Shown here: piece by piece, positions 16,343-36,769 of the stretch
How the letters are laid out: every line of letters starts with the position of its first letter
Position numbering within the stretch: position 1 is the stretch's first letter
Source: an uncultured Planctomycetota bacterium
GTDB taxonomy: Bacteria; Planctomycetota; PLA2; JAEUHO01
NCBI GenBank assembly: GCA_963752285.1
Contig: CAVVXN010000002.1
Location: forward strand, 256,001 to 320,000
DNA: 64,000 bases
Reading direction: 5' to 3'
Program-made: the position numbers and the translations under genes
The notes under the pieces: generated by a model
What the model was told of the DNA's origin: nothing
The model's database searches: none
The model's input: the letters and a program-made list of their open reading frames with translations, nothing else

Positions 16343-16460
16343 CTTGCCTTCCCGAGGGTCTCTGCCTCCCACGAAGCCTCCGTCCGGCCCGGGCCTGCCC
16401 GCCGGCGCATGAGTGTAGGCAAGACGCCCGGGATCCCCCCCTTTGGACCCTCGCGTCGAG

Positions 16461-16489
16461 TTGATTCCGGGCCGATTCGGGGGTATCCC
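16461..16489 (+). promoter_or_regulatory. Possible sigma-70-type promoter for the EF-G paralogue
   Basis: TTGATT-17 nt-TATCCC upstream of SD GGAGGAG and ATG 16524. Confidence 0.35.
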
Positions 16490-16523
16490 TCGGCCTCTTT
16501 GCCCCCCGCATGCGGAGGAGTCC

Positions 16524-18554
16524 ATGTCGCATCGTTCCGAGGATGTTCGCACCGCCGCGTTCGTCGGCGCGGGGGGCTCCGGGAAGACGACTCTGGTCGA
16601 GGCGCTGCTCTCCGAGACGAACGCGACGAGCCGACGCGGCACGATCGCCGAGCGGAACACGGTCTCCGACTGGGACGAGGACGAGAAGGAGCGCCAGCAG
16701 AGCATCCTCGCGTCCGCCGTGCACCTCGCCTGGGAGGGGAAGCGGATCCACCTGATCGACACGCCGGGGGCCCTGGACTTCGTGGGCGAGCCCGTCACGG
16801 CGCTGGCCGCGGTCGAGACCGCGATCTTCTGCGTGCACGCGCACGACGGGGTCGGCGTGACGACCCGCCGCATCTACAAGACCGCCCGGCGCGCCGGCAT
16901 CCCCTGCTGTGTCCTCGTGACCCGGATCGAGTCCGAGAACGTGGACGGGGCCGCGATCCTCGACGAGATCCAGGCGGCCTTCGGGGAGGCGGCCGTGCCG
17001 CTGAACCTGCCCGACACGTTCGGCAGCGACGTCTCGCAGGTCGTGGACGTCTTCTCGCCGGACGTGCCGGCGCACCTCGAGGCGACGGCCGCTCGGTACC
17101 GCCAGCAGGCGACCGACCGGGTCGTCGAGGTCGACGAGGCGCTGCTCGAGAAGTACCTGGAGGAGGGGCGGATCGAGCCCGCGGAGCTCGAGGCGGCGTT
17201 CCCGCGCGCGCTCCGGGCGGGCAACATCGTGCCGGTGCTCCACGTCTCCGCCGAGAAGGGCGTGGGCATGCGCAAGCTCTTGACCTTCCTCGTCCACGAC
17301 GCGCCGCGGCCCGTGCCCACCGTGCTCAGGCCCGCGAAGAACGCAGAGGGCGAGCCGGTCGCTCTCGACGCCGCCGGTCCGTTCTCGGCGCAGGTGTGGA
17401 AGATCCAGGTGGACCCGCACGTCGGCAAGGTCGCCTTTCTTCGCGTCTGGACCGGCTCCGTCGCGAGCAAGACGGGGTTCACGGTCGCGCGGACGGGTCG
17501 TCACGAGCGCATCGGCGACCTCCTCGAGATCCAGGGGAAGGAGATGAAGCCCGTCGCGGAGGCCGTGGCCGGCGACCTCGTGGCCGTCGCGAAGATCGAC
17601 GACATCCGCATCGGCGACACGGTGCGCGACGAGGCGGCCGACTGGACGTTCGACCCGATCGCCACCCCGTACCCGAAGGTCACGGTGGCCGTCGAACCGA
17701 AGAACCGCGCCGACGAGGCGAAGGTGGGGCCCGAGCTCCACAAGCTCGCCGACGCGGACCCCACGTTCGTCTTCGAGCGCGAGGAGGGCACGGGCGAGCT
17801 CGTGGTTCGCGGGATGAGCAGCCTTCACGTGGACGTGGTCCTGCGTCGCCTCGCCCGCCGCAAGGTCGAGGTGACGACGCACGCCCCGCGCGTCCCGTAC
17901 CGCGAGACCATCGGGTCGCGCGGCGAGGCGCAGTACCGCCACAAGAAGCAGACCGGCGGTCGCGGACAGTTCGCCGAGGTCCACCTCCGCGTCGCCCCCC
18001 TGCCGCGCGGTGGCGACTTCGAGTTCGTGGACGAGGTCGTCGGCGGATCGATCCCGCGGCAGTACATCCCGGCCGTCGAGAAGGGTGTGCGCGAGACCCT
18101 TCCGCGGGGCGTGGTCGCGGGCTACCCGTTCACCGACGTGCAGGTAACCGTCTTCTTCGGCAAGGCGCACGACGTGGACAGCGACGAGTTCTCGTTCAAG
18201 CTCGCCGCGAGCCAGGCGTTCAAGCAGGCGGTCCTGGACGCGAACCCCGTCCTCCTCGAGCCGATCCTCGACGTGGAGATCGAGGTGCCCTCGCGGTTCA
18301 TGGGTGACATCTCGGGCGACCTGAACAGCCGGCGCGGACGCATCCTGGGGATGAACCAGGAGGGGGACATGGCCATCATCCACGCGCACGTCCCCCTGGC
18401 GGAGATGCTCCAGTACAGCACCGAGCTCCGGAGCATCACCGCCGGCGAGGGCGACTACACGTTCCACTTCGCGGACTACGAGCAGGTGCCGCCGCACATC
18501 GCCGAGCAGGTGGTGCAGCGCTCGAAGCGCGAGCTCGCCGAGGAGCGCGCTTGA
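16524..18554 (+). CDS. Elongation factor G paralogue (EF-G2 / FusA2-like)
   Basis: GAGGSGKTT, DTPG, VPYRETI, HKKQTGGRGQFAEV, GKAHDVDS, LLEPI and GDLNSRRG. Located outside the str operon, with degenerate G motifs. Confidence 0.9.
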   Translation: MSHRSEDVRTAAFVGAGGSGKTTLVEALLSETNATSRRGTIAERNTVSDWDEDEKERQQSILASAVHLAWEGKRIHLIDTPGALDFVGEPVTALAAVETAIFCVHAHDGVGVTTRRIYKTARRAGIPCCVLVTRIESENVDGAAILDEIQAAFGEAAVPLNLPDTFGSDVSQVVDVFSPDVPAHLEATAARYRQQATDRVVEVDEALLEKYLEEGRIEPAELEAAFPRALRAGNIVPVLHVSAEKGVGMRKLLTFLVHDAPRPVPTVLRPAKNAEGEPVALDAAGPFSAQVWKIQVDPHVGKVAFLRVWTGSVASKTGFTVARTGRHERIGDLLEIQGKEMKPVAEAVAGDLVAVAKIDDIRIGDTVRDEAADWTFDPIATPYPKVTVAVEPKNRADEAKVGPELHKLADADPTFVFEREEGTGELVVRGMSSLHVDVVLRRLARRKVEVTTHAPRVPYRETIGSRGEAQYRHKKQTGGRGQFAEVHLRVAPLPRGGDFEFVDEVVGGSIPRQYIPAVEKGVRETLPRGVVAGYPFTDVQVTVFFGKAHDVDSDEFSFKLAASQAFKQAVLDANPVLLEPILDVEIEVPSRFMGDISGDLNSRRGRILGMNQEGDMAIIHAHVPLAEMLQYSTELRSITAGEGDYTFHFADYEQVPPHIAEQVVQRSKRELAEERA

Positions 18555-19891
18555 CGGACGAGATCTCCGCCGGCCGCGCCGCGCGCGCCGGCAGGGCTCT
18601 CGTCCTCGCGATCGGCCTGGTGGCGCTCCTCGCCGCGCGCTCCGGCGCGGGCGACGACGCGTCCGCGGACGTGCCGGGCGACGCGGCGCTCCGCGCGCGC
18701 GTCGTTCAGTGGCTCGACGACCTGCGGTCCGCGTCGTTCGAGACGAGGGAGACGGCGCGCGCGGGGCTCGAGCGGTACGCCCAGGCGGCCCCGGACCTCC
18801 TGGAGGCGCGGAAGGACGACCCCGACGCGGAGGTCCGCCGGACCGTTCGGACGATCCTGGAGCGGCTGCACGGCGCGGCGCCTCCCCCGCCGGCTCCGCA
18901 AGACGGCGACGTCGAGGGCGTAGGGCGCGTGACCATCTCGGCGAACGGTCCCCTCTCCGCCGTCCTCGAGCGCCTCGGCGCGCCGTACGGAGCGCGCGCG
19001 GTGGTGCCGGGCGACGCGGGCGGAACCGTCGTGGCCCTCGACCTCCACGACGTCCCCTTCTTCGAGGCGCTCGCGCAGGTCGCCGCCGTCGCGGACCTGG
19101 TCGCGCCGGGGCCCTTCGAGCCGGACGGGACGATCGCGCTCCGCGGGGCGGACGCGACACCCGCGGTCCCGAGCGCGGCGTCGGGGCCGCTCCGCGTCCG
19201 CGTCGAGGAGGTCACCTCGACGCGGACCCTCACGCGACCCGGCCGCCGGCACCACCTGGTCCTCGACCTCGACTGGATGCCCGCGGTCTCGGTGAGCGTC
19301 TGGCGCACGCCGACCGACCTCCAGGCCGTGGACCCCGACGGACGCCCCGTCCCGCCGGGCGCGGCGATGCGGAGCCGGACGTCCTGGGGCGCCGGCGTCG
19401 GGGCGACGTCGGGACGGTTCGCGATCGACCTCGACCCCGCCGCGGACGACCGGGTGGAGCGCCTCGCGCGCCTGGAGTTCGCCCTGCCCGTCCGTCTCGC
19501 CGTCGGGCGCCACGACGTCCACTTCGACCGGCCGACCGACGACCTGCCCCGCACGCTCCCCCCGGGATCGGGCCCGGACACGGAGGGCGCCGTCACCCTG
19601 CGTTCGCTCGCGCGGGCCCCCGGGAACGGGCCCTGGGTGGCGGAGGTGGGCATCCGCCTCGCCGGCGAGACCGCGGAGCGCACGCTCTCGCTCTGGCTCG
19701 ACCGGGACGACGGCACCTCCGTGCCGCTCACCGCCGGCACCCGGTTCCCCTCGGCGGACGGCTGGCTCTCGATCGTGGCCCGCGCATGGGGCCGATCGGA
19801 GGCCCTGCCGGTCCGACTGCGCGCGACCTGGCTCACGAGCGAGGTCGAGGGGAACGCCCGGTTCCGGCTGGAGGACGTGCCGCTGCGGTGA
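18551..19891 (+). CDS. Hypothetical exported protein (signal peptide, short HEAT-like segment, beta-rich remainder)
   Basis: TTGA overlap with the EF-G2 stop, a hydrophobic N-terminus, and a DDPDAEVRR HEAT-like motif. Confidence 0.65.
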   Translation: MTDEISAGRAARAGRALVLAIGLVALLAARSGAGDDASADVPGDAALRARVVQWLDDLRSASFETRETARAGLERYAQAAPDLLEARKDDPDAEVRRTVRTILERLHGAAPPPPAPQDGDVEGVGRVTISANGPLSAVLERLGAPYGARAVVPGDAGGTVVALDLHDVPFFEALAQVAAVADLVAPGPFEPDGTIALRGADATPAVPSAASGPLRVRVEEVTSTRTLTRPGRRHHLVLDLDWMPAVSVSVWRTPTDLQAVDPDGRPVPPGAAMRSRTSWGAGVGATSGRFAIDLDPAADDRVERLARLEFALPVRLAVGRHDVHFDRPTDDLPRTLPPGSGPDTEGAVTLRSLARAPGNGPWVAEVGIRLAGETAERTLSLWLDRDDGTSVPLTAGTRFPSADGWLSIVARAWGRSEALPVRLRATWLTSEVEGNARFRLEDVPLR

Positions 19892-19962
19892 CGGCCGCGC
19901 CCGCGGCCCTCCGAGCCGGCACAGGCCCTTCCCTCCTCCGGCCCGCGACGTATCCTCCCCGC

Positions 19963-20331
19963 GTGGAACGTCCCGCGCCGCCCTCTCTCGCGCCCGGACG
20001 CTCGGCGCTCCCGCGGTTCCTGCTGGTGGAGCGTCGCCTGGACGAGGAAGTCCGGGCGGCCGAGGAGGCCGCGGCCCGCGCGATCGAGGCCGCCGAGGTC
20101 GAGGCGAGGCGCGTCCGAAGCGAGGGCGAGGCGCGCCTCAAGGCCGTCGTGCTCGACGCGGAGACCCAGGCGCGGCGCGAGGTCGAGGCCCGTGCGCGCG
20201 ACCGCGTCAGCGACGCGCGCGTCCGCGTCGGCCGCTGGGTCGAGTCCGCCGAGGCGGCGAGCGCGGACGCCGTGGAGCGGGCGCTCGAGCTCCTCACCTC
20301 GGACCCGATCGAGGAGGGGGGCGGGGGGTGA
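19963..20331 (+). CDS. V/A-type ATPase peripheral-stalk subunit G(H)-like coiled-coil protein
   Basis: 122 aa Ala/Glu/Arg-rich helix (EEVRAAEEAAARAIEAAEVEARR). Its stop overlaps the start of the subunit I-like gene. TATCCT lies 6 nt before the GTG. Confidence 0.65.
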   Translation: MERPAPPSLAPGRSALPRFLLVERRLDEEVRAAEEAAARAIEAAEVEARRVRSEGEARLKAVVLDAETQARREVEARARDRVSDARVRVGRWVESAEAASADAVERALELLTSDPIEEGGGG

Positions 20332-22208
20332 TGCGCCCGGCCTTCCTCCAGGTCGAGATCCTGGGGCCGCGCGCGACCCTCGACCGGTGGCTCGAGGGCG
20401 TCCAGGAGCACGGGCGCTGCCACGTGGTGGACGCCCTGCTCGGTCTGGAGGGCGAGCCGGGGATCAGCCGCCCCACGCCGACGCGCGACGAGAACGACGC
20501 CGCGACGATGCGGAGCGAGGCGCTCCGTCGGCTCCGTGCCGTGGAGCGCGTCCTCCCTCGCACCGCGCCGGACGGGAACGGGTCGGCGCCGCGCCCCTCG
20601 TTCTCGGTCGGCGCCTCGGGCCAGGGCCTCGCCGACGTCGAGCGCGACGCGGCCGCGGCGGGGTCCGTGGGCGGGAAGATCCTCGCCGCGCTCGAGGCCG
20701 GCCGCGACGCGGACCGCAGCGTGGAAGCGGCGGAGGCGCGCCAGCTGCTCCTGTCAGCGCTCCCGCCGGCGCGGTCCGATCCGCTCGGCGTCGCGTATGC
20801 ATTTTCCGCGGAGCGTCCCGTGCCGCGCCGCCGGCTCGAGCGGTTCACGCGCGACGGCGCCTCGGTGTGGCGCGCGGTCGGTGAGCGGCAGGCGGTCGTC
20901 GTGCTCGACGTGCCGTCCGGCCAGGAGGACCGCTTCGGACAGGAGCTCGCGCGCCTCGGAGGCCGGAAGGTCGAGTGGGAGCCGGACCTGCTCCAGGGCG
21001 GTCGGGCCGCCGCGCTCGCGCGCGCGACCGAGGCGCTCGCGCACGCGAAGGCGCGCGACCGCGAGGCGCTCGGCGCGCTCCGCCGCGTCGTGGACGCCGA
21101 GGGCCCTCGCGCGCGCCGGTTCCTCGACGCGCTCGAGGACGCCGAGGCACGCGCGCGCCTCCGCGACCGCCTCGCGACGACGGAGCAGGTGACGGCGCTC
21201 CGCGCGTGGGTCCCGTCCGAGGACGTGGACGCGCTCGAGACGCGGCTCCGGGTACGGGTCGGCCCGGAGGTGGTCGTGCGCGCGCTCGGCGACGGTACGG
21301 ACGCGCCTGCGGCGCCGCGGCGCGTGGCGCCGGTCCCCCTGGCCGCACTCCAGGGGGTCGGAGCGCGGCGCTTCGGCGAGGTCACGGCGCCCGCGCTGCT
21401 GGCGCTCGCCGTGCCCATCGCCTTCGGGCTCGCCTGGGCCGACCTCGCGGGCGGGCTGCTCCTCCTCCTCGGTGGCGCGTTCCTCCAGATCGGCGCGGTG
21501 CCCGGCTCGCCGCGGCGCGACACGTCGCTCCTGGCGGAGGTCGCGGGTCTCGGCGCGCTCCTCGGGGGCCTGCTCGCGGGGCACGGCTTCGGCGCCCTCG
21601 GCGCGTCGTGGTTCGGGGTCGGCTGGGGCTTCCTCCCCGGGGAGGGCGGCTGGGCGGAGTGGCCCTCGGCCCTCCGGTTCACGTGGATCGTCGGCGCGGC
21701 GGCGGCCGCGGGCGCGGCGTGGGGGCTCGGCGTCGCGAGCGGTCGGGCGCGGGGCGGCGGACCCGCCGGCGCGCGCGCGGGTCTCGGCGTCGCGCTGCCG
21801 CTGGTCGTGGTCGCCGGCGCGGCCGCGGCGACGCTCCCCGCCGGGACGGTCCTGCACGCGCTGTGGTGGACCGCGCCGGTCGCGGCGATCGCGCTGCTCG
21901 TCGTGGCGGGGCTCCGCGAGGGCGGAGGTCGGCTGGTCCTCGACCTGGCCGCCACGGTCCGTCTCGTCGCGGTCCCGCTCTTCGCGCTCGAGGTCGCGTC
22001 CCGGGTCTTCGCGCGCCTCGCGGCCGACCCGTCGGCGGCGGGCTGGATCGTCGGCGTGCCTCTCCTCGCCGTCGCGACGCTGGCCGCGGTCGTGGACCCG
22101 GCGCACGTGGCGATGGGCGTGCCCTACGATCTCTCCCTCGGAGGTCGTGCGCTCGCCGAGCCGTACGCGCCGTTCGCGAGGCGTGGCCGGGACGGAGGTG
22201 AGCGATGA
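20328..22208 (+). CDS. Diverged V/A-type ATPase subunit I (a / NtpI)-like membrane protein
   Basis: Collinear with NtpI: ILGPRATLDRWLEGVQEHGRCHVVD, TEQVTALRAWVPSEDV, FGEVTAPALLALAVPIAFGLAWADLAGG (cf. YGEIDP..FPxFFGxMFGD), LAATVRLVA (cf. LSYxRLxA) and a terminal PYAPF. Confidence 0.75.
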   Translation: MMRPAFLQVEILGPRATLDRWLEGVQEHGRCHVVDALLGLEGEPGISRPTPTRDENDAATMRSEALRRLRAVERVLPRTAPDGNGSAPRPSFSVGASGQGLADVERDAAAAGSVGGKILAALEAGRDADRSVEAAEARQLLLSALPPARSDPLGVAYAFSAERPVPRRRLERFTRDGASVWRAVGERQAVVVLDVPSGQEDRFGQELARLGGRKVEWEPDLLQGGRAAALARATEALAHAKARDREALGALRRVVDAEGPRARRFLDALEDAEARARLRDRLATTEQVTALRAWVPSEDVDALETRLRVRVGPEVVVRALGDGTDAPAAPRRVAPVPLAALQGVGARRFGEVTAPALLALAVPIAFGLAWADLAGGLLLLLGGAFLQIGAVPGSPRRDTSLLAEVAGLGALLGGLLAGHGFGALGASWFGVGWGFLPGEGGWAEWPSALRFTWIVGAAAAAGAAWGLGVASGRARGGGPAGARAGLGVALPLVVVAGAAAATLPAGTVLHALWWTAPVAAIALLVVAGLREGGGRLVLDLAATVRLVAVPLFALEVASRVFARLAADPSAAGWIVGVPLLAVATLAAVVDPAHVAMGVPYDLSLGGRALAEPYAPFARRGRDGGER

Positions 22209-22858
22209 GCACCGCTCCCGACCTCCAACCGCTCCTCGACGCGGTGATCGAGCACGCGCACGCACGATGCCGCCATGCCGAGGACCGCGCCGCGGCGAGG
22301 CGGCGCGAGCTCCTCCTCGCCGCGGAGGACCACGTGCATGCGCTCGAGGAGGCGGCGCGCGAGATCGGCCGTACGCGCGGCGCGTCCGCGGACCTCGCCG
22401 CCTCGCGCGAGGCGCGGGCCGAGGTCGAGAAGGTCGCGAGCGAGGCCTTCGACCGTCTTCTCGAACGCTTCGAGCGTCGCGTGAAGCTGGCCCTCGAGGC
22501 CCTGCCTTCGAGCCCGAGGTACGGCGACGCGATCGGGGGGTGGGCGCGCGCGGCTGCCAGGCAGATCGATGGGCCCGTGGAGGTGCACACGGCGCCGCGT
22601 GACCGCGAGGCGGTGTACGAGGCGCTGCTCCAGGCCGGCGTGGAGGACTTCCGCGTGCGCGCCGAGCGGCGGATCGGGTGCGGGTTCGTCGTCCGCGACA
22701 TGGACGGGCGCACGGTCGCCGACCTGCGGCCCGAGGCCCTGGTCGCGTCCCGGAGGCCGGACCTCCGCCGCCTTCTCGAGGCCGTCGTGCCCCGCCCGAC
22801 AGGACTGGTCCCCGTCGATCCCGAGCCCGCCACGCCGGCCTCCGGCGGTCGCGCGTGA
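22205..22858 (+). CDS. V/A-type ATPase subunit E-like protein
   Basis: N-terminal coiled coil, then VHTAPRDRE and IGCGFVVRDMDGRTVADLRPEAL (cf. GGxxxxSxDGRIxxDNTxEARL). ATGA overlap. Confidence 0.75.
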   Translation: MSTAPDLQPLLDAVIEHAHARCRHAEDRAAARRRELLLAAEDHVHALEEAAREIGRTRGASADLAASREARAEVEKVASEAFDRLLERFERRVKLALEALPSSPRYGDAIGGWARAAARQIDGPVEVHTAPRDREAVYEALLQAGVEDFRVRAERRIGCGFVVRDMDGRTVADLRPEALVASRRPDLRRLLEAVVPRPTGLVPVDPEPATPASGGRA

Positions 22859-23892
22859 CGGCGGGACGCGTCCGCCGTCTCCGCCGCCTCCTCGGCGCCG
22901 GCCTCCTCGGGGCGCTCCTCCTGGGGCTCGTCCTCCTGCTCGCCCGACCCGGCGTCCACGGGCCCCTCGCGCGGGCGTTCCAGACGATCGCCCGGGACGC
23001 CTTCGGCGACGACGCAGGCGACCTGGGGCTTTTGCTCGACGACACCTCGGGACTCGGGCTCGGCGACCCCGTCTTCCGCGCAGACCGGCCCTCCGGGCTC
23101 GAGCCGGCGGGCTGGGTGGCCTCCATCGGGGCGGGGCGGGTCACGATCCGGCTCGCGCCGGGGGAGCGCCTCGACGGGGCGTGGCGGCTCGTCCGCCTCG
23201 GCGCGCCGCGCGGCCTCGCGGACGCCTGGCGCCTCGCGGTCCCGCCGGAGGCGGGCCGCGCGCTCGCCGCGCGGGCGAAGGAGGAGCTTTCGGGACTGCT
23301 CCAGGAGAGCGTCCTCCCCGAGCTCCGCCGGCGACTGCCCGAGTTCCTCTCGCGGGTGGACCCTCGCCACGATCCGCGCGCCCGCGCGGTGCTCGACGGG
23401 GTCGGCGCCGCGGTGGCGGAGCGCCTTCGGCCTCTGGCCGACGAGCTCGTGCGCTACGTGGGACGCGACCTCGAGAAGCGGTTCGGGTTCCTCGACCGCG
23501 TCTCGCTCCTCTTGAAGTACCTCCGCGGCGACACCGACGCACTCCGAGGCGAGCTGGTCCCGGCGGCGACCGAGAGCGCAACGCGGTGGTGGGCGGCGCG
23601 CCGGGACGCGGTCCTGACGGCCGTAGGCGAGGCGCTGCTCGCCGAGGCGAAGCCCGTGGGGACGTGGCTCGTGGAGGCGGTGCTGCCCGCCGCGCGGGAC
23701 ACCCTCCTCCGGCCCGTCCTCGACGCCCAGGCGCCGGCCATCGAGCGTTCGGCCCAGCGGGTGCTCGACGACGCCACGCGGCTCGTGGTGGAGGCGCCGG
23801 AGGGCGGTTTCCGCGTCCGCTTCGCGGCGGCGGTCCGAAGCCGGCTCCTCGAGAAGCGAGGTCCGCTGCTCCTCCTGGAGCGCGCGCCGTGA
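22855..23892 (+). CDS. MCE/MlaD-like protein (N-terminal TM, MCE domain, long helical C-terminus)
   Basis: TM anchor, then LDDTSGLGLGDPV...PAGWVASI...VTIRL, resembling the MCE signature (GLxxGxxV...VGxVxxI). Adjacent to an MlaE-domain gene. Confidence 0.6.
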   Translation: MTAGRVRRLRRLLGAGLLGALLLGLVLLLARPGVHGPLARAFQTIARDAFGDDAGDLGLLLDDTSGLGLGDPVFRADRPSGLEPAGWVASIGAGRVTIRLAPGERLDGAWRLVRLGAPRGLADAWRLAVPPEAGRALAARAKEELSGLLQESVLPELRRRLPEFLSRVDPRHDPRARAVLDGVGAAVAERLRPLADELVRYVGRDLEKRFGFLDRVSLLLKYLRGDTDALRGELVPAATESATRWWAARRDAVLTAVGEALLAEAKPVGTWLVEAVLPAARDTLLRPVLDAQAPAIERSAQRVLDDATRLVVEAPEGGFRVRFAAAVRSRLLEKRGPLLLLERAP

Positions 23893-25433
23893 GCGGAGCG
23901 CCGCAGCCGCTCCTCGAGGTCGAAGGGCTCGACGTCGTGGAGCGCGGCCGCCGGCTCGTCCTGCGGTCCTCGTTCGTCGTTCGCGAGGGCCAACGCGCGC
24001 TGCTGGTGGGACCGTCCGGCGCGGGCAAGTCGCTCTTCGTGGACCTTCTCCTCGGCTTCGCGGGACCCGAGACGCCGGAGCTCGTCGTGTCCGGGTCGAT
24101 CCGCCTCGACGGACACGAACGGCTCGGCGCGCCCCCCGACCCGTCGCTCGGCGCCGTGTTCCAGATCCACCGTCCGGGGCTCTTCGACGACCTGAGCGTC
24201 ACGCAGAACCTCGCGTTCGGCGCGTCGGACGCCGAGCGGCAGCGGGAGGCGGCGGCGGCGTTCCATCTCGGCGCGCTCGAACGACCCGTCGCGACGCTCT
24301 CCGGCGGCGAGCAGGTCCGGACCTCCCTGGTCCGGACGTTGCTCCACGGCGCCGAGATCCTCGTCCTCGACGAGCCCACGACCGGGCTCGACGAGAGCGC
24401 GAGGCGCCAGGTGGTGGACGCGATCGCGAAGGCCCACCGCCGCTTGACGCTCGTGGTCACGCACGACCTCGACGCGTTCGAGGGCTTCGCCGACGTCGTG
24501 CTCCTCCTCGACGCGGAGAGCCGGACGATCCGTCCCCTCGACCGCGGCGGGGAGGGCTGGGCCGCGGTCCGAGCCGCGCTCTCCCGTCGGGCGCCGCCTC
24601 CCCCGGCCGCACCCGACGGGACGCCGCGCCGGGCCACGCGCCTCCTCCGCGCCGGCGCGCGGGTCGCCGAGGGCGCGACCGAAGTCGCCGCCGACGCGCT
24701 CGTGGCGCTCCTCGCGCCGTTCGCGTGGCTGGCCGCGTTCCACCCGCTCCACGGGCCGCGCGTGCGCGGCGCGCTCCGCCGGGATCTCGCCCCGGGCGTC
24801 GCCGTCTTCGTCGGGCTGGCCTCCATCCTGATCGGCGTCACCGCGACCCACTTCCTCTTCGAACGGCTCCCGCAGCGCCCGTACGCGGAGGCGCTCTTCC
24901 TCGACGACCTCCTCGCCGGGCTCGGCGTGGTGCAGGTCCGGGTCGTGGTGCCCCTGCTCGTGTCGATCCTCCTCGCCGCGAAGCTCGGCGCCTCGACCGC
25001 CGCGTGGCTCGGTCACATGAGCCGGACGCGACAGATCGACGCCCTGCGCCTGCTCCACGTCCCGGTCCGCCGTCACCTGCTGCTGCCCGCCGCGGGGGGG
25101 CAACTCGCCGCGTCCCTCGTCCACACCACGATCGCCCTCGCGGGCGTGTTCCTGACCTCGCTCGTCGTGTTCCTGTGGGACCACCCCGGCTGGTCCGCCC
25201 GGTACGCGTGGCGCGCGTGGTTCGAGGAGGTGCACGGCCTGGACCTCGCGTGGGTGGCCGCGAAGGTCGGGCTCTCCGCCGTCGCCGTGGCCGCGATCGC
25301 CTTCCGGGCGGGCGTCACGCCGAAGCGGCGCCCGGAGGAGATCGTGTCCGCGATCCACGCCACCCTCTTGGGCGCGTTGCTCGCGGTTCTCGCGGTGCAC
25401 GCGGCGTTCGCGTTCCTGGAGTTCGCACGCTGA
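23889..25433 (+). CDS. Fused ABC ATPase (MlaF-like) and MlaE-family permease
   Basis: GPSGAGKS, LSGGEQ, LVLDEP and VTHD. The C-terminal half has VPLLVSILLAAKLGASTAAWLGHMSRTRQIDALRLL, the MlaE signature. Confidence 0.85.
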   Translation: MSGAPQPLLEVEGLDVVERGRRLVLRSSFVVREGQRALLVGPSGAGKSLFVDLLLGFAGPETPELVVSGSIRLDGHERLGAPPDPSLGAVFQIHRPGLFDDLSVTQNLAFGASDAERQREAAAAFHLGALERPVATLSGGEQVRTSLVRTLLHGAEILVLDEPTTGLDESARRQVVDAIAKAHRRLTLVVTHDLDAFEGFADVVLLLDAESRTIRPLDRGGEGWAAVRAALSRRAPPPPAAPDGTPRRATRLLRAGARVAEGATEVAADALVALLAPFAWLAAFHPLHGPRVRGALRRDLAPGVAVFVGLASILIGVTATHFLFERLPQRPYAEALFLDDLLAGLGVVQVRVVVPLLVSILLAAKLGASTAAWLGHMSRTRQIDALRLLHVPVRRHLLLPAAGGQLAASLVHTTIALAGVFLTSLVVFLWDHPGWSARYAWRAWFEEVHGLDLAWVAAKVGLSAVAVAAIAFRAGVTPKRRPEEIVSAIHATLLGALLAVLAVHAAFAFLEFAR

Positions 25434-25469
25434 GGAGGCGCGTCCTGGGGGCGGGAGCGCGCCGGCGGG

Positions 25470-26348
25470 TCAGCGTTCGTCGTCCTGATCGATGAAGAGG
25501 ACCTTCAGGTCGTGCTTGTGGTCTCGGACCATCAGGTTCCAGTCGTCCCACCGGGTCAGGTGCTGGCCCGTCAGCTCGTTCAAGGCGGTGGGGATGACGC
25601 CCGAGAGCTGCCCCCAGCGGTCGGTCCCCGAGCTCCCGCTCGCCGGCGGGATGTACTGGCCCGTGTTCGGGTCGTCCTTGCCGGGGCGCGCCCGACCGGG
25701 CTTGTCCTTCACGAGCGTGCCCACGAGGTCCTCGACGATCTTCTTGCGCAGACGCCACGACGCGTGGCGAAACTTCCCGAGCGCCTGCGCGGCGAGCGCG
25801 GCGATCCGGAAGTTCTCCGAGTCCTCGACGACCTTGAGGAGAGGCAGCACGAGCGAGTCGTCGCCGATCGCCCCCGCGGCGTCGATCGCGGTCGAGAGCC
25901 ACGGATCGACCTCGTCGTCTTGCTTCTTCACCGGCTCGATGAACGACTTCACGTACCGCGCCCCGTCGGGATGACCCATGTCGCCGAGGGCCTTGAGACC
26001 CGCCTTCCTCACGTCCGCGTCGCGCTCGCGCTTCAGAAGCAGGCCGACGGCCTTCACGAGGTGCTCGCGGGCCGCCTTCACGTCGGGGTGGCCCGCTGCC
26101 TCCTTGTAGAGCGCGACGGCGAGTTCCATGTCCTTCTGGAGCGCGGGCACCTGGTCGGCCTTCGCGTGGTCGTCGATCTGGTCCTCGTGCGCGGAGACCT
26201 TCTCCATGATGGGGGGCGATGCGGCGGGCGGATCGTCCTTCGCGATCGACGCCCGGGCCGCGATCGTGAAGATGAACAGCACGACGATCGACGCTGCGAT
26301 CCGCGCACGAACGCGGACGGGCACGACACGAGCCGTCGATGAACGCAT
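25470..26348 (-). CDS. Exported HEAT-repeat-like protein
   Basis: Signal peptide ending ARA and helical repeats (VRKAGLKALGDMG, AIDAAGAIGD, AAQALGKF). SD AAGGGGAG. Confidence 0.7.
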   Translation of the reverse strand: MRSSTARVVPVRVRARIAASIVVLFIFTIAARASIAKDDPPAASPPIMEKVSAHEDQIDDHAKADQVPALQKDMELAVALYKEAAGHPDVKAAREHLVKAVGLLLKRERDADVRKAGLKALGDMGHPDGARYVKSFIEPVKKQDDEVDPWLSTAIDAAGAIGDDSLVLPLLKVVEDSENFRIAALAAQALGKFRHASWRLRKKIVEDLVGTLVKDKPGRARPGKDDPNTGQYIPPASGSSGTDRWGQLSGVIPTALNELTGQHLTRWDDWNLMVRDHKHDLKVLFIDQDDER

Positions 26349-26562
26349 CGGACTCCCCTTTCGACGAGACGAACCACCACGGGGAGGACGCCGTCACGTA
26401 CGCGCGTTCCCCGCGCGGCGCGGCTCGTGCCCCCGTCCCCGGCCCTCGGGCGCCCTTCGGCCCGCGGTCCCCGGGGCGGCATCCTCCGCCTGGCTCGAGC
26501 ACCTATTCAGACGTCATCGGCCGGCGGATGGTTTGCCACGTTCTCGAAAGGGGACGTAAGGA

Positions 26563-26608
26563 CCACGGGACGAGACTTTAGACTAGAGCCTAAAGTCTCG
26601 GCCCGTGG
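26563..26608. repeat. Long inverted repeat (terminator, operator or recombination-site candidate)
   Basis: CCACGGG-A-CGAGACTTTAG-(ACTAGAGC)-CTAAAGTCTCG-G-CCCGTGG: perfect 11-bp inner arms, an 8-nt spacer and 7-bp outer arms. Confidence 0.8.
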
Positions 26609-26651: not shown

Positions 26652-28781
26652 TCAGGGAACCGTGGGGTACGGGAGGTCCGTCGCGTCGAGCGGACCGGCC
26701 ATCGTGCTGAGGAGGACGCCGGTTGGGAGCTGGCGCGTCACGTCGCGGAAGAACGCCTCGCGGCCCGCGCCGAGCCCGGTGAGGGACGCGCGCGGCACGG
26801 GCACGTTCGGCAGCACGACCTCGGGGAAGTGCGCCGTGATCTGGCCCGTCGTGTCCGGGACCACCGTGCCCGTCACCGTGAAGTCGGAGTCCGGGTTCCG
26901 CCCGGGCCACGTTCCCGGCGGGAACATCGTCGAGTCGGTCGCGAGGGTCGCGGCGACCGTGAACGGCATCACCGACAAGAGCTCGGCGGTGGAGGTGGCC
27001 ACGCGACGTCGCGTCGCGAACTGCCACGCGACGCGGATCGGAGCCGGCGCCGTATCGCCCTCGAAGTAGGCGGGCACGCGCACGATCTGGGTGCCGGGGA
27101 TCGCCTGCCCCGTCCCGTCCCGCGCGGTGCCGAGATACGTCGCGTTCGTGCCGCCCTCCGGGATCAACGCGGAGCCCGGGTCGGGGCTCAGGACCACGTC
27201 CGGGTTGCCGTTCGCGAGGTCGAACGTGACCAGGTAGTACACGCCGCCCGGGTCGCCGCTCGACGAGCCGGAGCTGCGGTAGGGCAGCCAGGCACCGATG
27301 CGGCCCGCGAGATCGTGGACGAGGTCGTCCGTCACGGGCGCGGACGGCGGGTCCACCGTCGTCAGGTTGTAGACGAGCGGAAGTCCCGGGACCCAGCGCG
27401 TGTCCGGGTCGGAGGTCGCCGTGTCGATCGCGCCCGTCAGCAGCGCGACGCCGCTCATCCACGTGAAGGGCGCCTTGTTGAGCGGGGGCTCGGAGGGCGC
27501 GGGCACGGCCGGCTCCTCGCCGGGAAGCGTCGGCGGCGGGACGTTCGGCTTGTTCGGACCGCTGCCGACCGCCTCGCGGTGCCCGATCGCCAGCACCTCG
27601 ATGTCCATCGAGTTGAGCGCCTCGATGGTCGCCTGGAGCGTCGCGGCGCCCGTCGGCGCGACGGGGATCGCGCCGGTCTCGTCGCCGAAGCGGGCGTAGG
27701 CCTGCTGACTCGTCGCGTCGCTCGCGAAGCCGGGGGGGAAGCCGCCCGGAGCCACCGGGGAGGCGGCCGCGAAGGCCTGCACGCTGGTGATCGTCTCGCT
27801 CGGGCGCGGTCCCGTGCCGGGCGCGCTCGGCGTGTTGGAGACGGACGCGTCGAGCGCGGTCCCCTCGACGAGCGGCGTGATCGTCGCGATGTCGCTGTAC
27901 ACCACGATGAACCGGATGGAGTTCGGGCGCCAGCCGGCCCCGCCGAGGCTGCCGCTCGAGCGCGTGTCGCCCACGATCCACTCGGGCTCGCCGTCGTCGT
28001 CCGTGCCCTGACTCCCGAGTGCGAAGGGCGGGACGTCGCCCGAGCTGCCCGGGGCGAGCTGCGTCGTCTCGAGGCCCACGCTTCCGCTGTCGAGGTTCGA
28101 GCTGTTGCCGTCGCCGTCGAAGCCGGTTCCCGTCGCGAGCTGGTAGAGCGCCTCGAGCGCGGATTGCGCGTCCACGGGGTCGCGGCCGCCGTCACCCGGG
28201 GTGGTGCGCGAGAGCGCGAGCGAGAAGAGCGAGGCGAAGAGCTGGTTGCCCTGCCGCAGGATGGGCTGGTTCAGGATGAACGGACGCGCGAGCCCGTCGA
28301 TCGGCAGCGCGACCTGCGTGGGGTCGCCGGCCTGGGGGCCCGACCGCACGAAGTTGGCGTAGTCCTCGAAGCGCGAGACGCCGAAGGCCAGGTCGAAGTC
28401 GGAGGTCTGGCCGAGCCCCTCCGAGACGAGCTGGTTCAGCAGACGGTCCTTCGCGTCGCGAAAGACCTCCTGGGCGACGACGGACTTGATGCGGCCGTCG
28501 CCCGGCGTCTGGATCTCGCCGAGGACGATGTCCGAGTTCGGCTCGGGCGTGTCCTTCGTGTTGAAGAACGAGTCGTCGAGCAGGAACATCACGTCCACCT
28601 TGAGCGGCCCGTTCTGAGGCCGCACCGCGACGGGGGGCAGCTCGATGCCGACCTGCCCAACCGAGGTGGTCTGCGCCTGGAGCTGCAGGGTCCCGGAGTC
28701 CTCGGCGCAGCAGCCTGCGACGAAGCCCAGGAGACTGGCGATCGAGAGGATCCTCACCGCCTTGATCGTGGGTCGCGTCAT
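26652..28781 (-). CDS. Large lipoprotein with a vWA (integrin-beta I-like) domain
   Basis: Lipobox-like GFVAGC, with VDVMFLLDDS, FGVSRFED, ALEALYQLATG and GWRPNSIRFIVVYSD. Confidence 0.7.
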   Translation of the reverse strand: MTRPTIKAVRILSIASLLGFVAGCCAEDSGTLQLQAQTTSVGQVGIELPPVAVRPQNGPLKVDVMFLLDDSFFNTKDTPEPNSDIVLGEIQTPGDGRIKSVVAQEVFRDAKDRLLNQLVSEGLGQTSDFDLAFGVSRFEDYANFVRSGPQAGDPTQVALPIDGLARPFILNQPILRQGNQLFASLFSLALSRTTPGDGGRDPVDAQSALEALYQLATGTGFDGDGNSSNLDSGSVGLETTQLAPGSSGDVPPFALGSQGTDDDGEPEWIVGDTRSSGSLGGAGWRPNSIRFIVVYSDIATITPLVEGTALDASVSNTPSAPGTGPRPSETITSVQAFAAASPVAPGGFPPGFASDATSQQAYARFGDETGAIPVAPTGAATLQATIEALNSMDIEVLAIGHREAVGSGPNKPNVPPPTLPGEEPAVPAPSEPPLNKAPFTWMSGVALLTGAIDTATSDPDTRWVPGLPLVYNLTTVDPPSAPVTDDLVHDLAGRIGAWLPYRSSGSSSGDPGGVYYLVTFDLANGNPDVVLSPDPGSALIPEGGTNATYLGTARDGTGQAIPGTQIVRVPAYFEGDTAPAPIRVAWQFATRRRVATSTAELLSVMPFTVAATLATDSTMFPPGTWPGRNPDSDFTVTGTVVPDTTGQITAHFPEVVLPNVPVPRASLTGLGAGREAFFRDVTRQLPTGVLLSTMAGPLDATDLPYPTVP

Positions 28782-29037
28782 GATCGTCAGCCCTCCCGCC
28801 CGGCCGCTGGCCACCGGTTCTTCACCGGGCGACGCCAGCACGCGGGCACATCCCGGGCCCGCCCGGAGCGAGCCCCGCGGACCGGCGCCCGGCCGGCCCT
28901 CCTAAGTCCCTGTCCCGAAACGGGTTGCAGACCCTCGCGAGGTCCGCCCGCACGCCCCGGACGCCCCCCGCCCGTCGACTCCGGACATCGGACGTCGAAA
29001 CCCGAGGACATTCCTCCTCCGCGTCCGCCCATCCGGA

Positions 29038-30805: not shown

Positions 30806-31243
30806 TCAGCGCTCGTTCGCGATGCGAATCCGGGCGCGGGCGCTCGCGAGGGCGCGGTCGCGCGCCTCGAAGGCCTCCGGCGTCGTCGGCACGCGCGCGA
30901 GCGCCGCGGCGAGGTCTTGCTGCGCCACCGCGGCGTCCACGCGCGCCGCCGGCTGGGCCCGCTCCGCGAGGACCGTCACGGTGCCGTCGAACGTCTGCAC
31001 GACGCCGCCCTCGAGGAACCAGCGCTGCCACGCGGGCCCGTCGGGCCGGATCCGGAGCTCGCCCGCGCCCAGGCGGGCCACGAAGGGGGCGTGGCCCGGC
31101 AGGAACTCCACCTGCCCGTCGTGCGCGGGCACGATGACCGCCTCGGCGAGCCCGTCGTAGACCGGTCCTTCGGGGGTGAACACGCCGACGAGAAGGTGCC
31201 CGGGCGGCGCGCTGACGGGGGGGGGAGAGGCCGGGGGCTCCAC
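30806..31243 (-). CDS. atpC: F1 ATP synthase epsilon subunit
   Basis: VFTPEG, VPAHDGQVEFLPGHAPF, FLEGG and VTVLAE. Last gene of the atp operon. Confidence 0.92.
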   Translation of the reverse strand: MEPPASPPPVSAPPGHLLVGVFTPEGPVYDGLAEAVIVPAHDGQVEFLPGHAPFVARLGAGELRIRPDGPAWQRWFLEGGVVQTFDGTVTVLAERAQPAARVDAAVAQQDLAAALARVPTTPEAFEARDRALASARARIRIANER

Positions 31244-31245
31244 GG

Positions 31246-33627
<2,382 letters not shown>

Positions 33628-35157
33628 TCAGGCCGCCGCGGTGCCCAGGAAGCTCTTCGTGAAGCCGTCGAGGACGCGACGCAGGTCGCTCTCGACCTCC
33701 TCCGTCAGCGCCTTCGATGCGTCGAGGCGGTCCCAGAGATCCTGGTGGCTGGTGTGCACGTGATCGAGCAGGGCGGCCTCGTATTCGCGGACGCGGCCGA
33801 GCGGCACGGCGTCGAGGAAGCCGCCCGCCGCCGCGTAGATCACCACGACCTGGTCGATGACGTGCATCGGCTTGAACTGCCCCTGCTTCAGGATCTCGAC
33901 CATCCGGCGGCCCCGGTCGATTTGTGCCTGCGTGGCCTTGTCGAGCTCGGTTCCGAGCTGCGCGAAGGCCTCGAGCTCGCGAAACGCGGCGAGCGAGAGG
34001 CGCAGGCCGCCGGCCACCTTGCGGTGCTTCATGGCCTTCACCTGCGCGGCGCCGCCCACGCGGCTGACCGAGATGCCGACGTCCACGGCGGGCCGCACGC
34101 CCGCGCGGAAGAGGTCGGGCAGGAGGTAGATCTGACCGTCCGTGATCGAGATCACGTTCGTCGGGATGTACGCCGAGACCTCGCCTTCCTGCGTCTCGAT
34201 GATCGGGAGCGCGGTGAGCGAACCGCCCCCGAGGTCGTCGGAGAGCTTCACGGCTCGCTCGAGGAGGCGGCTGTGCAGGTAGAAGACGTCGCCCGGATAC
34301 GCCTCGCGTCCCGGCGGCCGCCGGAGCAGGAGGGAGATCTGTCGGTACGCGACGGCTTGCTTCGTGAGGTCGTCGTAGACGCAGAGCGTGTGCCGCTTGT
34401 GCTGGTACATGAGGTGCTCGGCCATCGTGCACCCCGCGTACGGCGCGATGTACTGGAGCGAGGCCGGGTACGCGGCCGATGCGTTGACCACGACCGTGTA
34501 GTCCATCGCGCCCGCGCGGCGCAGATCCTCGACGACCTGCACGACGGTGGACTCCTTCTGGCCGATCGCGACGTAGAAGCAGATCACGTCGTGGCCGCGC
34601 TGGTTGATGATCGTGTCGATCGCGATCGCCGTCTTCCCGGTCTTCCGGTCGCCGATGATCAGCTCGCGCTGGCCCCGACCGATGGGGGTCATCGAGTCGA
34701 TCGCCTTGATGCCGGTCTGGAGCGGCTCCTTCACGGGCTGGCGGTCCGCGATGCCGGGCGCGATGAGCTCCACGGGCCTCGTCGTCTCGCCGCGGATCTC
34801 GCCCTTGCCGTCGAGGGGGCGGCCCAGCGGGTCGACGACGCGACCGACGAGCTCGAGACCCACGGGAACCTCGAGGAGGTTGCCGGTGCGGTGCACCGAC
34901 ATGCCTTCCTGCAGGGTCTTGTAGTCTCCGAGCACGACCGCTCCGATCGAGCCCTCCTCCAGGTTGAACACCTGGGCGCGCACGCCGTTCTCGAACTCGA
35001 TCATCTCGCCCGCGGCCGCGCGGTCGAGCCCGTAGATGCGTGCGATGCCGTCGCCGACCTCGAGGAGGGTGCCGACCTCGGCCACGTCGGCCTGGGTCCG
35101 GAACTCCTCCAGCTCCTTCTTGAGGACGGAGGTGATCTCCTCAGGATTGAACCGCAT
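33628..35157 (-). CDS. atpA: F1 ATP synthase alpha subunit
   Basis: [27 protein letters not shown] and [20 protein letters not shown]. Confidence 0.98.
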
Positions 35158-35716
35158 GCTGCCTTCTCCCTCGCACGCGCCGGCCGATCTCGGCCAGCAT
35201 CCGGCGTCCGCTCAGGTCGAGCACGAGGTCGCCGACGCGGAGCGTCGCGCCCGCCACGAGCTCGGGCTTCACGTGATGTTCGAGAACGGGCTCCTGGCGC
35301 AGCGCCGCGCGGAGCCGATCGGTCCACAGTCGGAGGTGCTCCTCCGACGCGGGGGTCGCCGTGTTGAGCGTCACGGGCACGCGATCGAGGCGGACGTCCG
35401 TCCAGACCTCGTACGCCACCGCCACGCGGTCGAGCAGGCGCGCGCGGCCGTGGTCCAGGAGGAGTCGGACGAAGTCCCCGAGGAGAGGGGGGAGCCCCGC
35501 GAGGAGCCGATCGAGCGACTGCGCCTTCTCCTCCTGCTTCACCATCGCGGAGAGGAAGTACGCGCGGAGCGTCCTCTGGTCGGCCCAGGCCCCGCCGAGC
35601 GCGGCGAGGGCCTCGCCGACCTCGCGCACGAGCGCCTCGCCGCCGCGCTCGTCGGCGACCTGCCCGAGCGCGGCGGCGTACACCGCCGCGAGCGGTTCGA
35701 CCCGTCGTCGGCTCAC
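35141..35716 (-). CDS. atpH: ATP synthase delta subunit
   Basis: VYAAAL and [19 protein letters not shown]. Lies between atpF and atpA. Confidence 0.88.
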
Positions 35717-36342
35717 GTGGCGCTCCGATGGCGGTCGCGTTCGAACGCGCCGACGACCTCGTCCACGAGGTCCGCGTTGTCCTCCGGCGTCAGCTGTCGC
35801 CGGACGATCTTGGACGCCGCCTCGGTGGCGAGCGCCGTCACGTCGGAGAGGATCCGGTCGTAGGCGTCGTCCGCCGCTTGCCGGACGTCCCGCACGGCCC
35901 GGGCGGTCGTCTCCTCCGCCTGCCGGCGGGCTTCGGCCTCGATGCGCTGCGCGACGACCTCGGCGGCCCGCTTCCCCTCCTCGGCGATCTGCCGGGCCTT
36001 CTCGGTCGCCTCGTCCAGACGGCTCCGGTACTCGGCCGCGAGGGCCCGGGCTTCGGCGTTGGCGCGCTCGGCGTCGTCCACGGCCTTCTTGATCACGTCC
36101 TCGCGCCGCTGGAGGCCCGTCAGGATGGGCTTCCACGCGAGCTTCGTGAGCACGACCAGCAGCACGAGGAACGTGACGATCGCCGCGACCATCGACGGCA
36201 GGTCGAGGTTCGCGGAGATCAGGTCGGGCTCCGACGAGGCCGCCGGTGCGCCGGCGTCGCCGGCCGCGGGGGGCTCGGCGAAGGCGGGCGCGACGACGAA
36301 GACGGCCAGCAGGAGCCACAGCACGAGCGGCCGGGTCCACAT
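35713..36342 (-). CDS. atpF: Fo subunit b, with an N-terminal signal-like extension
   Basis: FLVLLVVLTKLAWKPILTGLQRRE followed by a coiled coil. Confidence 0.92.
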   Translation of the reverse strand: MWTRPLVLWLLLAVFVVAPAFAEPPAAGDAGAPAASSEPDLISANLDLPSMVAAIVTFLVLLVVLTKLAWKPILTGLQRREDVIKKAVDDAERANAEARALAAEYRSRLDEATEKARQIAEEGKRAAEVVAQRIEAEARRQAEETTARAVRDVRQAADDAYDRILSDVTALATEAASKIVRRQLTPEDNADLVDEVVGAFERDRHRSAT

Positions 36343-36425
36343 GGGGAAGGTCTCCTCGATCGGACGGGGGGCACGACGACCCGGCCCCGCCCCCGGACGG
36401 GGAGCGGGCCGAGCGCCGATCCGGC

Positions 36426-36695: not shown

Positions 36696-36769
36696 GTCCG
36701 GGACTCCTACGGGGTGCGCTCGGGAGCGCGGTCGAAACGGGAACGGGGCCGACCGGGCGGCGGACCTTC

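Follow-up and report, generated by a model that had tools for sequence, protein, structure and literature searches.

Stator-like V/A-ATPase genes without a rotor share a conserved cassette with an MlaF-MlaE fusion in one family of uncultured Planctomycetota

Our analysis of a 64,000-nucleotide (nt) stretch of an uncultured Planctomycetota genome (assembly GCA_963752285.1, contig CAVVXN010000002.1, positions 256,001 to 320,000 of the forward strand; hereafter the window) revealed a cassette of five genes, g1 to g5, in which relatives of the stator subunits G, I/a and E of V/A-type ATPases (g1 to g3) are encoded together with a membrane-anchored protein of predicted MCE type (g4) and a fusion of the transporter proteins MlaF and MlaE (g5). 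What the parts are, that rotary partners are missing, and that the genes are linked and co-occur in a conserved manner jointly support this five-gene unit. With confidence a little better than even, we propose that the cassette encodes one ATP-driven MCE/Mla transporter of the cell envelope, moving lipids or other hydrophobic molecules, in which the rotor-less V-type stator would serve as a static scaffold or regulator. It is the genetic linkage that suggests a role of the stator in the transporter.

Because the window has a G+C content of ~75%, lists of its open reading frames in six frames are crowded with spurious entries, and real genes were told from these by their G+C content at third codon positions (GC3). 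All five cassette genes have GC3 values of 0.90–0.95 and second-position values (GC2) of 0.50–0.58, as do the neighbouring genes. The cassette occupies positions 19963–25433 of the plus strand (Table 1), each of its genes ends in TGA, and the junctions g1/g2, g2/g3, g3/g4 and g4/g5 are 4-nt overlaps, GTGA, ATGA, GTGA and GTGA, at positions 20328, 22205, 22855 and 23889. A preliminary description of this DNA, made from its letters, had reported the five genes and their four stop/start overlaps, and all of its positions proved accurate. The GTG at 19963 is the true start of g1, since the conserved MDRPxLPP that it opens is also the beginning of nine orthologues. The preliminary description had further proposed a -10 box of sequence TATCCT ahead of this start. 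The hexamer is present; a scan of positions 18400–26600 for the sigma-70 consensus, the coverage of which excludes Planctomycetota promoters, gave no promoters and no intrinsic terminators, and the role of the hexamer as a -10 box thus stays unverified.

The comparisons strongly identify g2 as a full-length but divergent subunit I/a of V/A-type ATPases. The protein consists of a cytoplasmic N-terminal domain (residues ~1–330) and a C-terminal membrane domain of eight helices (~335–597). It has no Pfam match at E ≤ 1, and the V_ATPase_I model (PF01496) finds nothing in the whole genome at E ≤ 10; the NCBIfam model for V-type subunit I matches g2 at E 6.7e-16 and 57.9 bits, far under its cut-off of 777. 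When a profile built from nine g2 orthologues (A1) was compared with the sequences of all solved structures, it retrieved subunit I of Thermus thermophilus at E 1.2e-11, with residues 98–387 colinear with 86–380, and in a profile–profile alignment (hhalign) against six canonical Planctomycetota I proteins it reached a probability of 97.4 and an E-value of 1.3e-11 over columns 4–427. An AlphaFold2 (AF2) model of g2, with a mean predicted local distance difference test score (pLDDT) of 77.5, has the full-length two-domain architecture of subunit a, including the long C-terminal helical hairpin, and the top 40 Foldseek matches of this model (E ≤ 0.001, the best 5e-12) are all subunit a/I chains. 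In VIA comparisons, residues 6–320 match the N-terminal domain of subunit I (3rrk) with Z 8.9 over 289/301 residues, and residues 335–597 match the membrane domain of I in Thermus Vo with Z 7.1 and a root-mean-square deviation (rmsd) of 5.9 Å over 238 aligned residues; these tests of the architecture use a predicted model, and Z values of this size are middling for helical proteins.

The I-like proteins form a small subfamily. Among 1.84 billion representative proteins, a HMMER search with the I-like profile found only 26 at E ≤ 1e-30, and the next matches after the subfamily members and their fragments are canonical I subunits of 485–661 residues, scoring no more than 105 bits and in some cases aligned end to end (for example 7–626). 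All eight canonical-type matches that were scanned are members of Pfam V_ATPase_I, whereas the two divergent subfamily members scanned are not. Two distant members of the subfamily, P0020 and P0023, score 546 and 372 bits in the HMMER search. Public sources name the canonical matches V/A-type ATPase subunit I; the g2 subfamily carries no name in them, and a word-indexed protein search with g2 returned six matches, none with a functional name.

The penultimate long helix (TM7) of subunit a carries an essential arginine, R735 in Vph1 and R563 in Thermus. R545 of g2 is invariant in 9/9 I-like proteins and, in a mixed MAFFT alignment, stands in the column of the arginine of the canonical SY(A/S)R(L/I)MA motif (15 of 16 sequences). 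The second conserved arginine, in the last helix (TM8), is not kept: where canonical proteins have A-L-R-L-H-Y-V-E-F-F, the I-like proteins have A-M-G-V-P-Y-D, with glycine in place of arginine and aspartate (D601) in place of glutamate. Aligned alone with hhalign, the C-terminal 200–230 residues of I-like and canonical I proteins gave a probability of 0.7%, which is not significant, and the correspondence of R545 to the canonical arginine is therefore an alignment-based one, drawn from the mixed MAFFT alignment and the end-to-end HMMER matches. In a genome of the same genus (G001), the I-like gene (L026:3001-4332) is shortened in frame to 443 residues, without residues ~134–244 and ~508–541 and with the R545 region kept.

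The two smaller stator-like proteins are assigned less firmly. g3 probably represents a divergent subunit E, an assignment of moderate strength. It would have a long N-terminal helix followed by a C-terminal globular domain, which carries the motif GFVVRDLDGR, and this C-terminal head is strongly conserved among relatives. The Pfam model vATP-synt_E (PF01991) does not match g3 and finds 0/10 members of its family at E ≤ 0.01. In a search of solved structures with a profile of the g3 family (A2), the top four matches are Thermus subunit E, colinear and at E 0.08–0.33. hhalign of the g3 profile against three canonical Planctomycetota E proteins gave a probability of 76 and E 2.3e-5 over 192 columns (3–197 against 1–208), an end-to-end alignment that takes in the C-terminal G-x-I/V-x-x-x-DG-R motif, and 28 of 30 look-alikes of g3 found with a protein language model belong to vATP-synt_E clusters (score 0.94). 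Resemblance to subunit G is weak for g1, which may be called G-like. Its size (122 residues) and its place directly upstream of the I gene fit subunit G, and an alignment of the family (A3) shows a conserved N-terminal motif, PGRSALPxF..E. Pfam V-ATPase_G_2 matches g1 at E 9e-4, under its cut-off, when the frame is read from 19951 and gives no match to the form starting at 19963; a test with this family (PF16999/PF03179) matched 3/10 members at E ≤ 0.01, the best at 5.8e-4 and none over the cut-off. Against solved structures, the g1 profile retrieves V-type G chains at E ~0.1, amid unrelated helical proteins.

The last gene of the cassette, g5, is an intact MlaF-MlaE fusion. An MlaF-like ABC ATPase (~1–210; Pfam ABC_tran, E 2.9e-20, 73.7 bits with a cut-off of 25) is followed by an MlaE permease domain (~305–509; Pfam MlaE, E 8.9e-18, 65.1 bits with a cut-off of 22.5), and the Walker A motif GxSGxGKS, the Q-loop, the signature SGGE, the Walker B motif DEPT and H192 of the H-loop are invariant in 7/7 orthologues. 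In one relative (G009), g5 (L018:8382-9931) is split into two overlapping frames covering residues 1–146 and 139–512, which points to a frameshift or to a fault in the assembly. A metagenome scan with the alignment A7 was dominated by generic ABC ATPases, and among the 80 loci listed the matches cover only about residues 1–246, at 25–35% identity; a second alignment, A4, contained no segment of sufficient conservation for such a scan. With every open reading frame in 19963–25433 accounted for, the cassette, the only part of the genome examined for these proteins, encodes no MlaB (STAS), MlaC or MlaA. A second MlaE, canonical and 271 residues long, is encoded elsewhere in the genome (G000:C5:1413357-1416986, L062; E 7.6e-71 to 8.3e-71), and g4 and g5 are therefore a supplementary system, distinct from the housekeeping one.

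For g4 the predicted fold points to an MCE-type barrel behind a membrane anchor. In the AF2 model (pLDDT 80.4), an N-terminal membrane anchor leads into a small beta-barrel, in keeping with the seven-stranded barrel of the MCE family, and long helices are present as well. The barrel is made up of residues ~55–115 and a last strand, 338–343, with a helical domain of ~210 residues (121–331) between them, and since the last strand returns to the barrel, the helices would constitute an insertion within it. The top Foldseek matches are MlaD and Mce1, with probabilities of 0.96–0.98 and E-values of only 0.05–0.2, and VIA comparison of the barrel with MlaD, Mce1 and LetB gave Z 7.2–7.9 and rmsd 2.3–2.5 Å over 72 residues; these scores are middling, and unrelated helical entries reach equal Z in the same VIA table. 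Pfam MlaD (PF02470) matches 0/9 members of the g4 family at E ≤ 1, and a genome-wide search with PF02470 misses g4. The inserted helices bear a weak resemblance to apolipoprotein A-IV (E 0.0012), and a look-alike search with g4 was uninformative (best score 0.79). Downstream of the canonical MlaE lies a divergent partner of at least 436 residues, to which MlaD matches only faintly (E 0.03); it may be that the Pfam models generally miss MCE partners in this lineage because of their divergence. As to the names given in the preliminary description, its subunit I is strongly borne out, its subunit E moderately and its subunit G weakly; the ABC–MlaE fusion is confirmed by Pfam scores above the cut-offs, and the MCE/MlaD-like protein holds at the level of a predicted fold.

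Are the missing parts of a rotary ATPase encoded elsewhere? The genome is a metagenome-assembled genome (MAG) of 5 contigs and 89% completeness, and all genomes compared here are MAGs. Profile searches of the whole of it found no V_ATPase_I, ATP-synt_D or vATP-synt_AC39 at E ≤ 10, and ATP-synt_F and vATP-synt_E gave chance-level matches only (E 1.2 and 5.2); for each of these absent subunits the search matched positive controls in known V/A-ATPase genomes. The single ATP-synt_C gene (36426–36680) is of the F-type, and the four ATP-synt_ab genes comprise those for F1 alpha and beta, both in the window, and two for Rho on another contig. In five other carriers of the cassette, each at least 90% complete, a D subunit over the cut-off was found in 0/5, and each has exactly one c gene. 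These results support the view of g1 to g3 as an orphan stator, the searches of the genome having yielded neither a V1 head nor a central stalk nor a V-type c-ring. The lack of other V-type subunits, which the preliminary description had noted for the window, thus extends to the genome as assembled. Canonical V/A-ATPases do occur in the phylum: 24 of 151 sampled Planctomycetota genomes score over the PF01496 cut-off, 0 of 2 sampled members of this family among them. Their gene order is G-C-I-K-F-E-A-B-D, and G-I-E therefore corresponds to the canonical order minus the genes for rotor and head. The minus strand carries, at 30806–37948 and 5.4 kb from the cassette, an F1Fo operon with its full set of genes (a, c, b, delta, alpha, gamma, beta, epsilon), in agreement with the complete F-type synthase that had been placed about 5 kb away. 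The two Rho-type genes lie at G000:C5:1852969-1856583 (L016) and G000:C5:175845-179459 (L017); one encodes 547 residues with an N-terminal extension, the other encodes 438 residues and, at 487 bits, narrowly misses the TIGR00767 cut-off of 509.

The order G-I-E-MCE-MlaFE is kept in 9/9 loci fetched from relatives, as far as their contigs reach and at protein identities of 32–66%, so that the gene order first described from the window alone is a conserved one; further public contigs show the same order. The reading frames are intact in 17 genomes from 11 genera, at 33–57% protein identity, a divergence at which synonymous sites are saturated. Within the family, 17 of 29 genomes have the I-like gene, the same 17 and one more (G019) have the MCE-like gene, and 11 have neither; G019 is a contig-edge case, its contig starting 538 nt before g4. 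The I-like and MCE-like genes lie on one contig in 14 of the 17 carriers, and the assembly breaks there in the other three. The gap between the two genes is 611–891 nt, which equals the E-like gene, in 12 of these 14 genomes, and 2.5 and 3.9 kb in the other two. At the g3/g4 junction, where the two halves of the cassette meet, the genes overlap by 4 nt both here and in G001, and in five further loci they are separated by at most 62 nt. Across a set of 40 relatives, the occurrence of g5 parallels that of the MCE-like gene, and the 16 relatives that belong to other families yielded none of the I-like gene, the MCE-like gene and g5. A search of sequencing runs listed one DNA run, with a word share of 0.05, and no RNA run. 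Across 401 Planctomycetota genomes, complete genes score 620–920 bits with the I-like profile and all belong to this family, the scores elsewhere being ≤55 bits; fragments and the shortened same-genus copy score under the range of complete genes in this survey. The cassette is restricted to a single family of uncultured Planctomycetota, and the conserved order together with the matched presence and absence (with one contig-edge exception) supports a genetic tie between the stator-like trio and the MCE/MlaFE pair.

Further information comes from genomes without the cassette. In three of these (G007, G020 and G010), the upstream frame of ABC exporter, EF-G paralogue, 446-residue protein and a gene that we presume to be thioredoxin-like (see below) is present and g1 to g5 are all absent; the F1 beta gene follows the frame within 2.3 kb in G007 and 0.6 kb in G020. 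The genes g1 to g5 therefore act as one present-or-absent block within a conserved frame.

How might a stator without a rotor serve a transporter? In the model that we favor, the g5 fusion, presumably as a homodimer, would be the ATP-driven motor in the inner membrane, and g4, held by its one N-terminal helix, would be its MCE partner. The periplasmic barrel of g4 would be expected to form a ring, as the barrels of other members of the family do, and its amphipathic helical insertion of ~210 residues may bind lipid or extend a conduit toward the outer membrane. g1 to g3 would descend from a V/A-type stator, that is, subunit I/a and the E–G peripheral stalk, and would now play a non-rotary part, anchored in the membrane, in scaffolding or regulating the transporter. 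R545 in helix 7, together with D590 and D601 in helix 8, suggests that g2 may still present a polar face or groove within the membrane, which could contact a partner or pass ions or lipid head-groups. We infer, rather than observe, that the parts associate physically, what is transported and in which direction, and any role of the arginine. A complex prediction for two MlaE domains of g5 (255–514) with the membrane domain of g2 (330–600) scored 0.00, a value obtained with no controls that speaks neither for nor against binding. It is conceivable, if on balance doubtful, that the rotor-less stator is physically built into the MCE/Mla ABC transporter as a chimeric machine. The groove formed by R545, D590 and D601 would then face the transporter and couple ion flow to lipid movement, or would let head-groups pass in a scramblase-like manner, with the E–G stalk bracing or regulating the ATPase domains.

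Several observations weigh against a joint transporter. A canonical E–G stalk measures ~150 Å, with a head that binds subunit B at a great distance from the membrane, and ABC ATPase domains lie close against the membrane, which makes for an awkward geometry. In two of the 14 same-contig cases, G009 and G015, unrelated genes stand between the E-like and MCE-like genes, so the two halves tolerate separation. The intervening frame in G009 (L018:5911-7356, 481 residues) appears by eye from its translation to be asparagine-synthase-like, and the genes in G015 (L022:2330-5469), named likewise by eye, are presumably two HtrA/DegP-like serine proteases with signal peptides. Gene order in the family is conserved beyond the cassette, taking in the EF-G paralogue, u1 and F1Fo; synteny alone therefore weighs less, the genomes being kin and not independent. 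Part of the N-terminal domain of the I-like protein is dispensable, since the G001 copy lacks residues ~134–244; one representative of the g2 subfamily in the mixed alignment, P0023, is without the arginine; the MCE assignment of g4 is read from a predicted fold with middling scores; and the missing subunits were sought in MAGs, the one at hand with the completeness given above. The separated halves and the generally high synteny would also suit a model of two independent, co-inherited modules, which we regard as possible and well short of probable. Here g4 and g5 would form a self-sufficient Mla-like transporter, much as Mla and Mce transporters elsewhere (MlaFEDB, Mce1) work without such proteins, and g1 to g3 would be a rotor-less stator remnant with a separate job, for example as a scaffold for some other cytoplasmic partner or as a gated ion or lipid path, the two travelling together only by sharing a cassette. 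Against such independence speak the matching presence and absence across the 29 family genomes (one contig-edge exception) and the 16 outside relatives, the close g3/g4 junction here, in G001 and in five more loci, and the limitation of both halves to the same single family.

The strong conservation of the C-terminal head of the E-like protein means that it probably still binds something, and this brings to mind a partner outside the cassette, either F1Fo, to which the trio could supply an alternative or regulatory stator, or an unrecognized cytoplasmic ATPase docking on the E–G heads. The position of the cassette in a conserved frame beside F1Fo, with the c gene on the same contig in 5/5 other carriers, and the presence of a second Rho-like hexameric ATPase in the genome are compatible with this proposal, which we nevertheless consider improbable: the F1Fo synthase here is already equipped with an a, b and delta stator and occurs in the same frame in family genomes without the cassette, we know of no F-type enzyme that uses V-type I, E or G, and the strict pairing with g4 and g5 would be left unexplained. 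Very much less probable still is the alternative that the preliminary description had offered, a decaying or split ntp operon abutting an Mla locus by chance, with g1 to g3 as functionless remnants. The order G-I-E can be had from the canonical one by deleting C, K, F, A, B and D, all three proteins are too divergent for the Pfam models, and the I-like gene of G001 is internally shortened. Neutral decay, however, would have broken the reading frames at 33–57% identity, and they are open throughout the 17 genomes and 11 genera; GC3 in these genes is 0.90–0.94, equal to that of flanking genes; dozens of residues are invariant, including R545 and GFVVRDLDGR of the E-like protein; and the AF2 model of g2 is confident and shows a full-length subunit-a architecture. 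We therefore reject decay. The main proposal of the preliminary description, a stator repurposed as an accessory of an MCE transporter, survives in part: the orphan stator and its genetic linkage to the transporter genes stand, and direct contact or an energizing role is still a conjecture.

Comparison with known systems places each half of the cassette near a familiar machine. In common with the MlaFEDB complexes of E. coli, Pseudomonas aeruginosa and Acinetobacter (PDB 6xbd, 7cha, 6zy2), the cassette encodes side by side an MlaE permease, an ABC ATPase with its catalytic motifs and a (predicted) anchored MCE partner. Unlike in MlaFEDB, ATPase and permease are one polypeptide, no gene for MlaB (STAS), MlaC or MlaA is present in the cassette, the putative MCE barrel carries the helical insertion of ~210 residues and misses Pfam MlaD, three V-ATPase-derived genes are co-encoded, and a separate canonical MlaE exists elsewhere in the genome. 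The mycobacterial Mce1-type system (PDB 8fed, 8fee, 8fef) likewise combines an MCE barrel and long helices, as a possible periplasm-spanning conduit, with a motor of the MlaE/MlaF type, and its chains match g4 with Z 7.1–7.7 and rmsd 2.4–2.5 Å over 71–72 residues. It differs in having six MCE genes, where the cassette has one, in placing the helices in a C-terminal extension, where the g4 model inserts them in the barrel, and in its Mas/Luc accessory genes, in place of which V-stator-like genes are found here.

The stator half is closest to that of the Thermus thermophilus V/A-ATPase, which consists of I and two E–G stalks (6qum, 6r0z, 5y5x, 3rrk, 3v6i). g2 matches I in both domains and keeps the helix-7 arginine, and the best or near-best matches of g3 and g1 among solved structures are Thermus E and G. 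In contrast to the Thermus enzyme, searches of the genome gave no genes for A, B, D, F, C/d or a c-ring, the second arginine, in helix 8, is glycine in g2, the C-terminal halves compared alone reach a probability of 0.7%, and g1 to g3 all score under the curated family cut-offs. LetAB and PqiABC, MCE systems that a non-ABC partner in the inner membrane drives (PDB 9n8w, 9n8x, 6v0g; PMC13017536), offer a precedent for MCE conduits paired with unusual, family-specific integral membrane proteins, and the MCE domains of LetB match g4 with Z 7.1–7.5. Those systems have neither an ABC motor nor V-ATPase-like proteins; the cassette has an ABC motor and a homologue of subunit a.

What is new here is an Mla/MCE-type transporter locus that combines an accessory set without precedent, a fusion of MlaF with MlaE and a predicted MCE barrel with a helical insertion. 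To our knowledge, it is very rare for subunits of rotary ATPases to occur apart from these enzymes. A full-text literature search, to which subscription journals were closed, gave no paper that links V-ATPase stator subunits to Mla/MCE systems. Should the stator prove to be built into the transporter, the arrangement would be categorically new, the first non-rotary use of the stator parts of a rotary ATPase. A homologue of subunit a that has kept the key arginine long without a c-ring raises the question of what this fold does on its own, as a scaffold, an ion path or a lipid groove. The cassette also bears on how MCE systems are energized or regulated, notably in Planctomycetota, the envelope biology of which is poorly known, and as a self-contained set of five genes with all-or-none distribution it is tractable for heterologous expression and cryo-electron microscopy. 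If the two halves are independent, the locus would still provide a divergent Mla variant and a clear example of a stator that is retained without a rotor.

The genes flanking the cassette are listed with it in Table 1. Upstream lie an ABC exporter on the other strand, the EF-G paralogue and the 446-residue protein. The latter two were considered as members of the cassette and ruled out; the gene for the 446-residue protein is found in 25 of 29 family genomes, cassette-less ones included.

Table 1. Cassette genes, the proposed promoter element and flanking genes, with positions in the window.
Feature	Position	Strand	Remarks
EF-G paralogue, all five EF-G domains	16443-18554	+	Overlaps the 446-residue gene by 4 nt
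446-residue protein, no family match	18551-19891	+	Conserved family-wide, together with the EF-G paralogue, upstream of the cassette site
TATCCT hexamer	19951..19956	+	6 nt upstream of the g1 GTG; proposed -10 box, sequence present, promoter role unverified
g1, 122 residues, V/A-ATPase subunit G-like, helical	19963..20331	+	GC3 0.93; weak profile matches
g2, 626 residues, divergent V/A-ATPase subunit I/a	20328..22208	+	Profile, profile–profile and fold searches
g3, 217 residues, probable divergent V/A-ATPase subunit E	22205..22858	+	Profile, profile–profile, language-model look-alikes
g4, 345 residues, putative MCE-type beta-barrel with helical insertion	22855..23892	+	Predicted fold only
g5, 514 residues, MlaF-MlaE fusion	23889..25433	+	Pfam ABC_tran and MlaE above cut-offs
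HEAT-repeat protein, 292 residues	25470-26348	-	Downstream of cassette
729-residue protein, no family match	26652-28841	-	Downstream of cassette

In most relatives, one or two paralogous genes for proteins of ~210–260 residues stand between the 446-residue gene and g1 (L028:5680-7451, L029:4824-5447, L032:5392-7069, L039:5845-7487, L033:6841-7548, L035:6847-7599, L177:4856-5566, L178:4715-5440); this window has none, with a gap of 72 nt in their place. We take these paralogues to be thioredoxin-like from the look of the sequence. They share the pattern VL.NK.F..WA.EN..V..AHNELGH...CPLYPG.TCR.H and also occur in cassette-less genomes of the family. On the downstream side, a relative of the 729-residue protein lies near the cassette in L033, L035, L036 and L039 and is not present in G007. 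Just past the F1Fo operon, at 38512–39483 on the plus strand, a gene matches the lipid A biosynthesis acyltransferase family Lip_A_acyltrans at E 6.4e-30.

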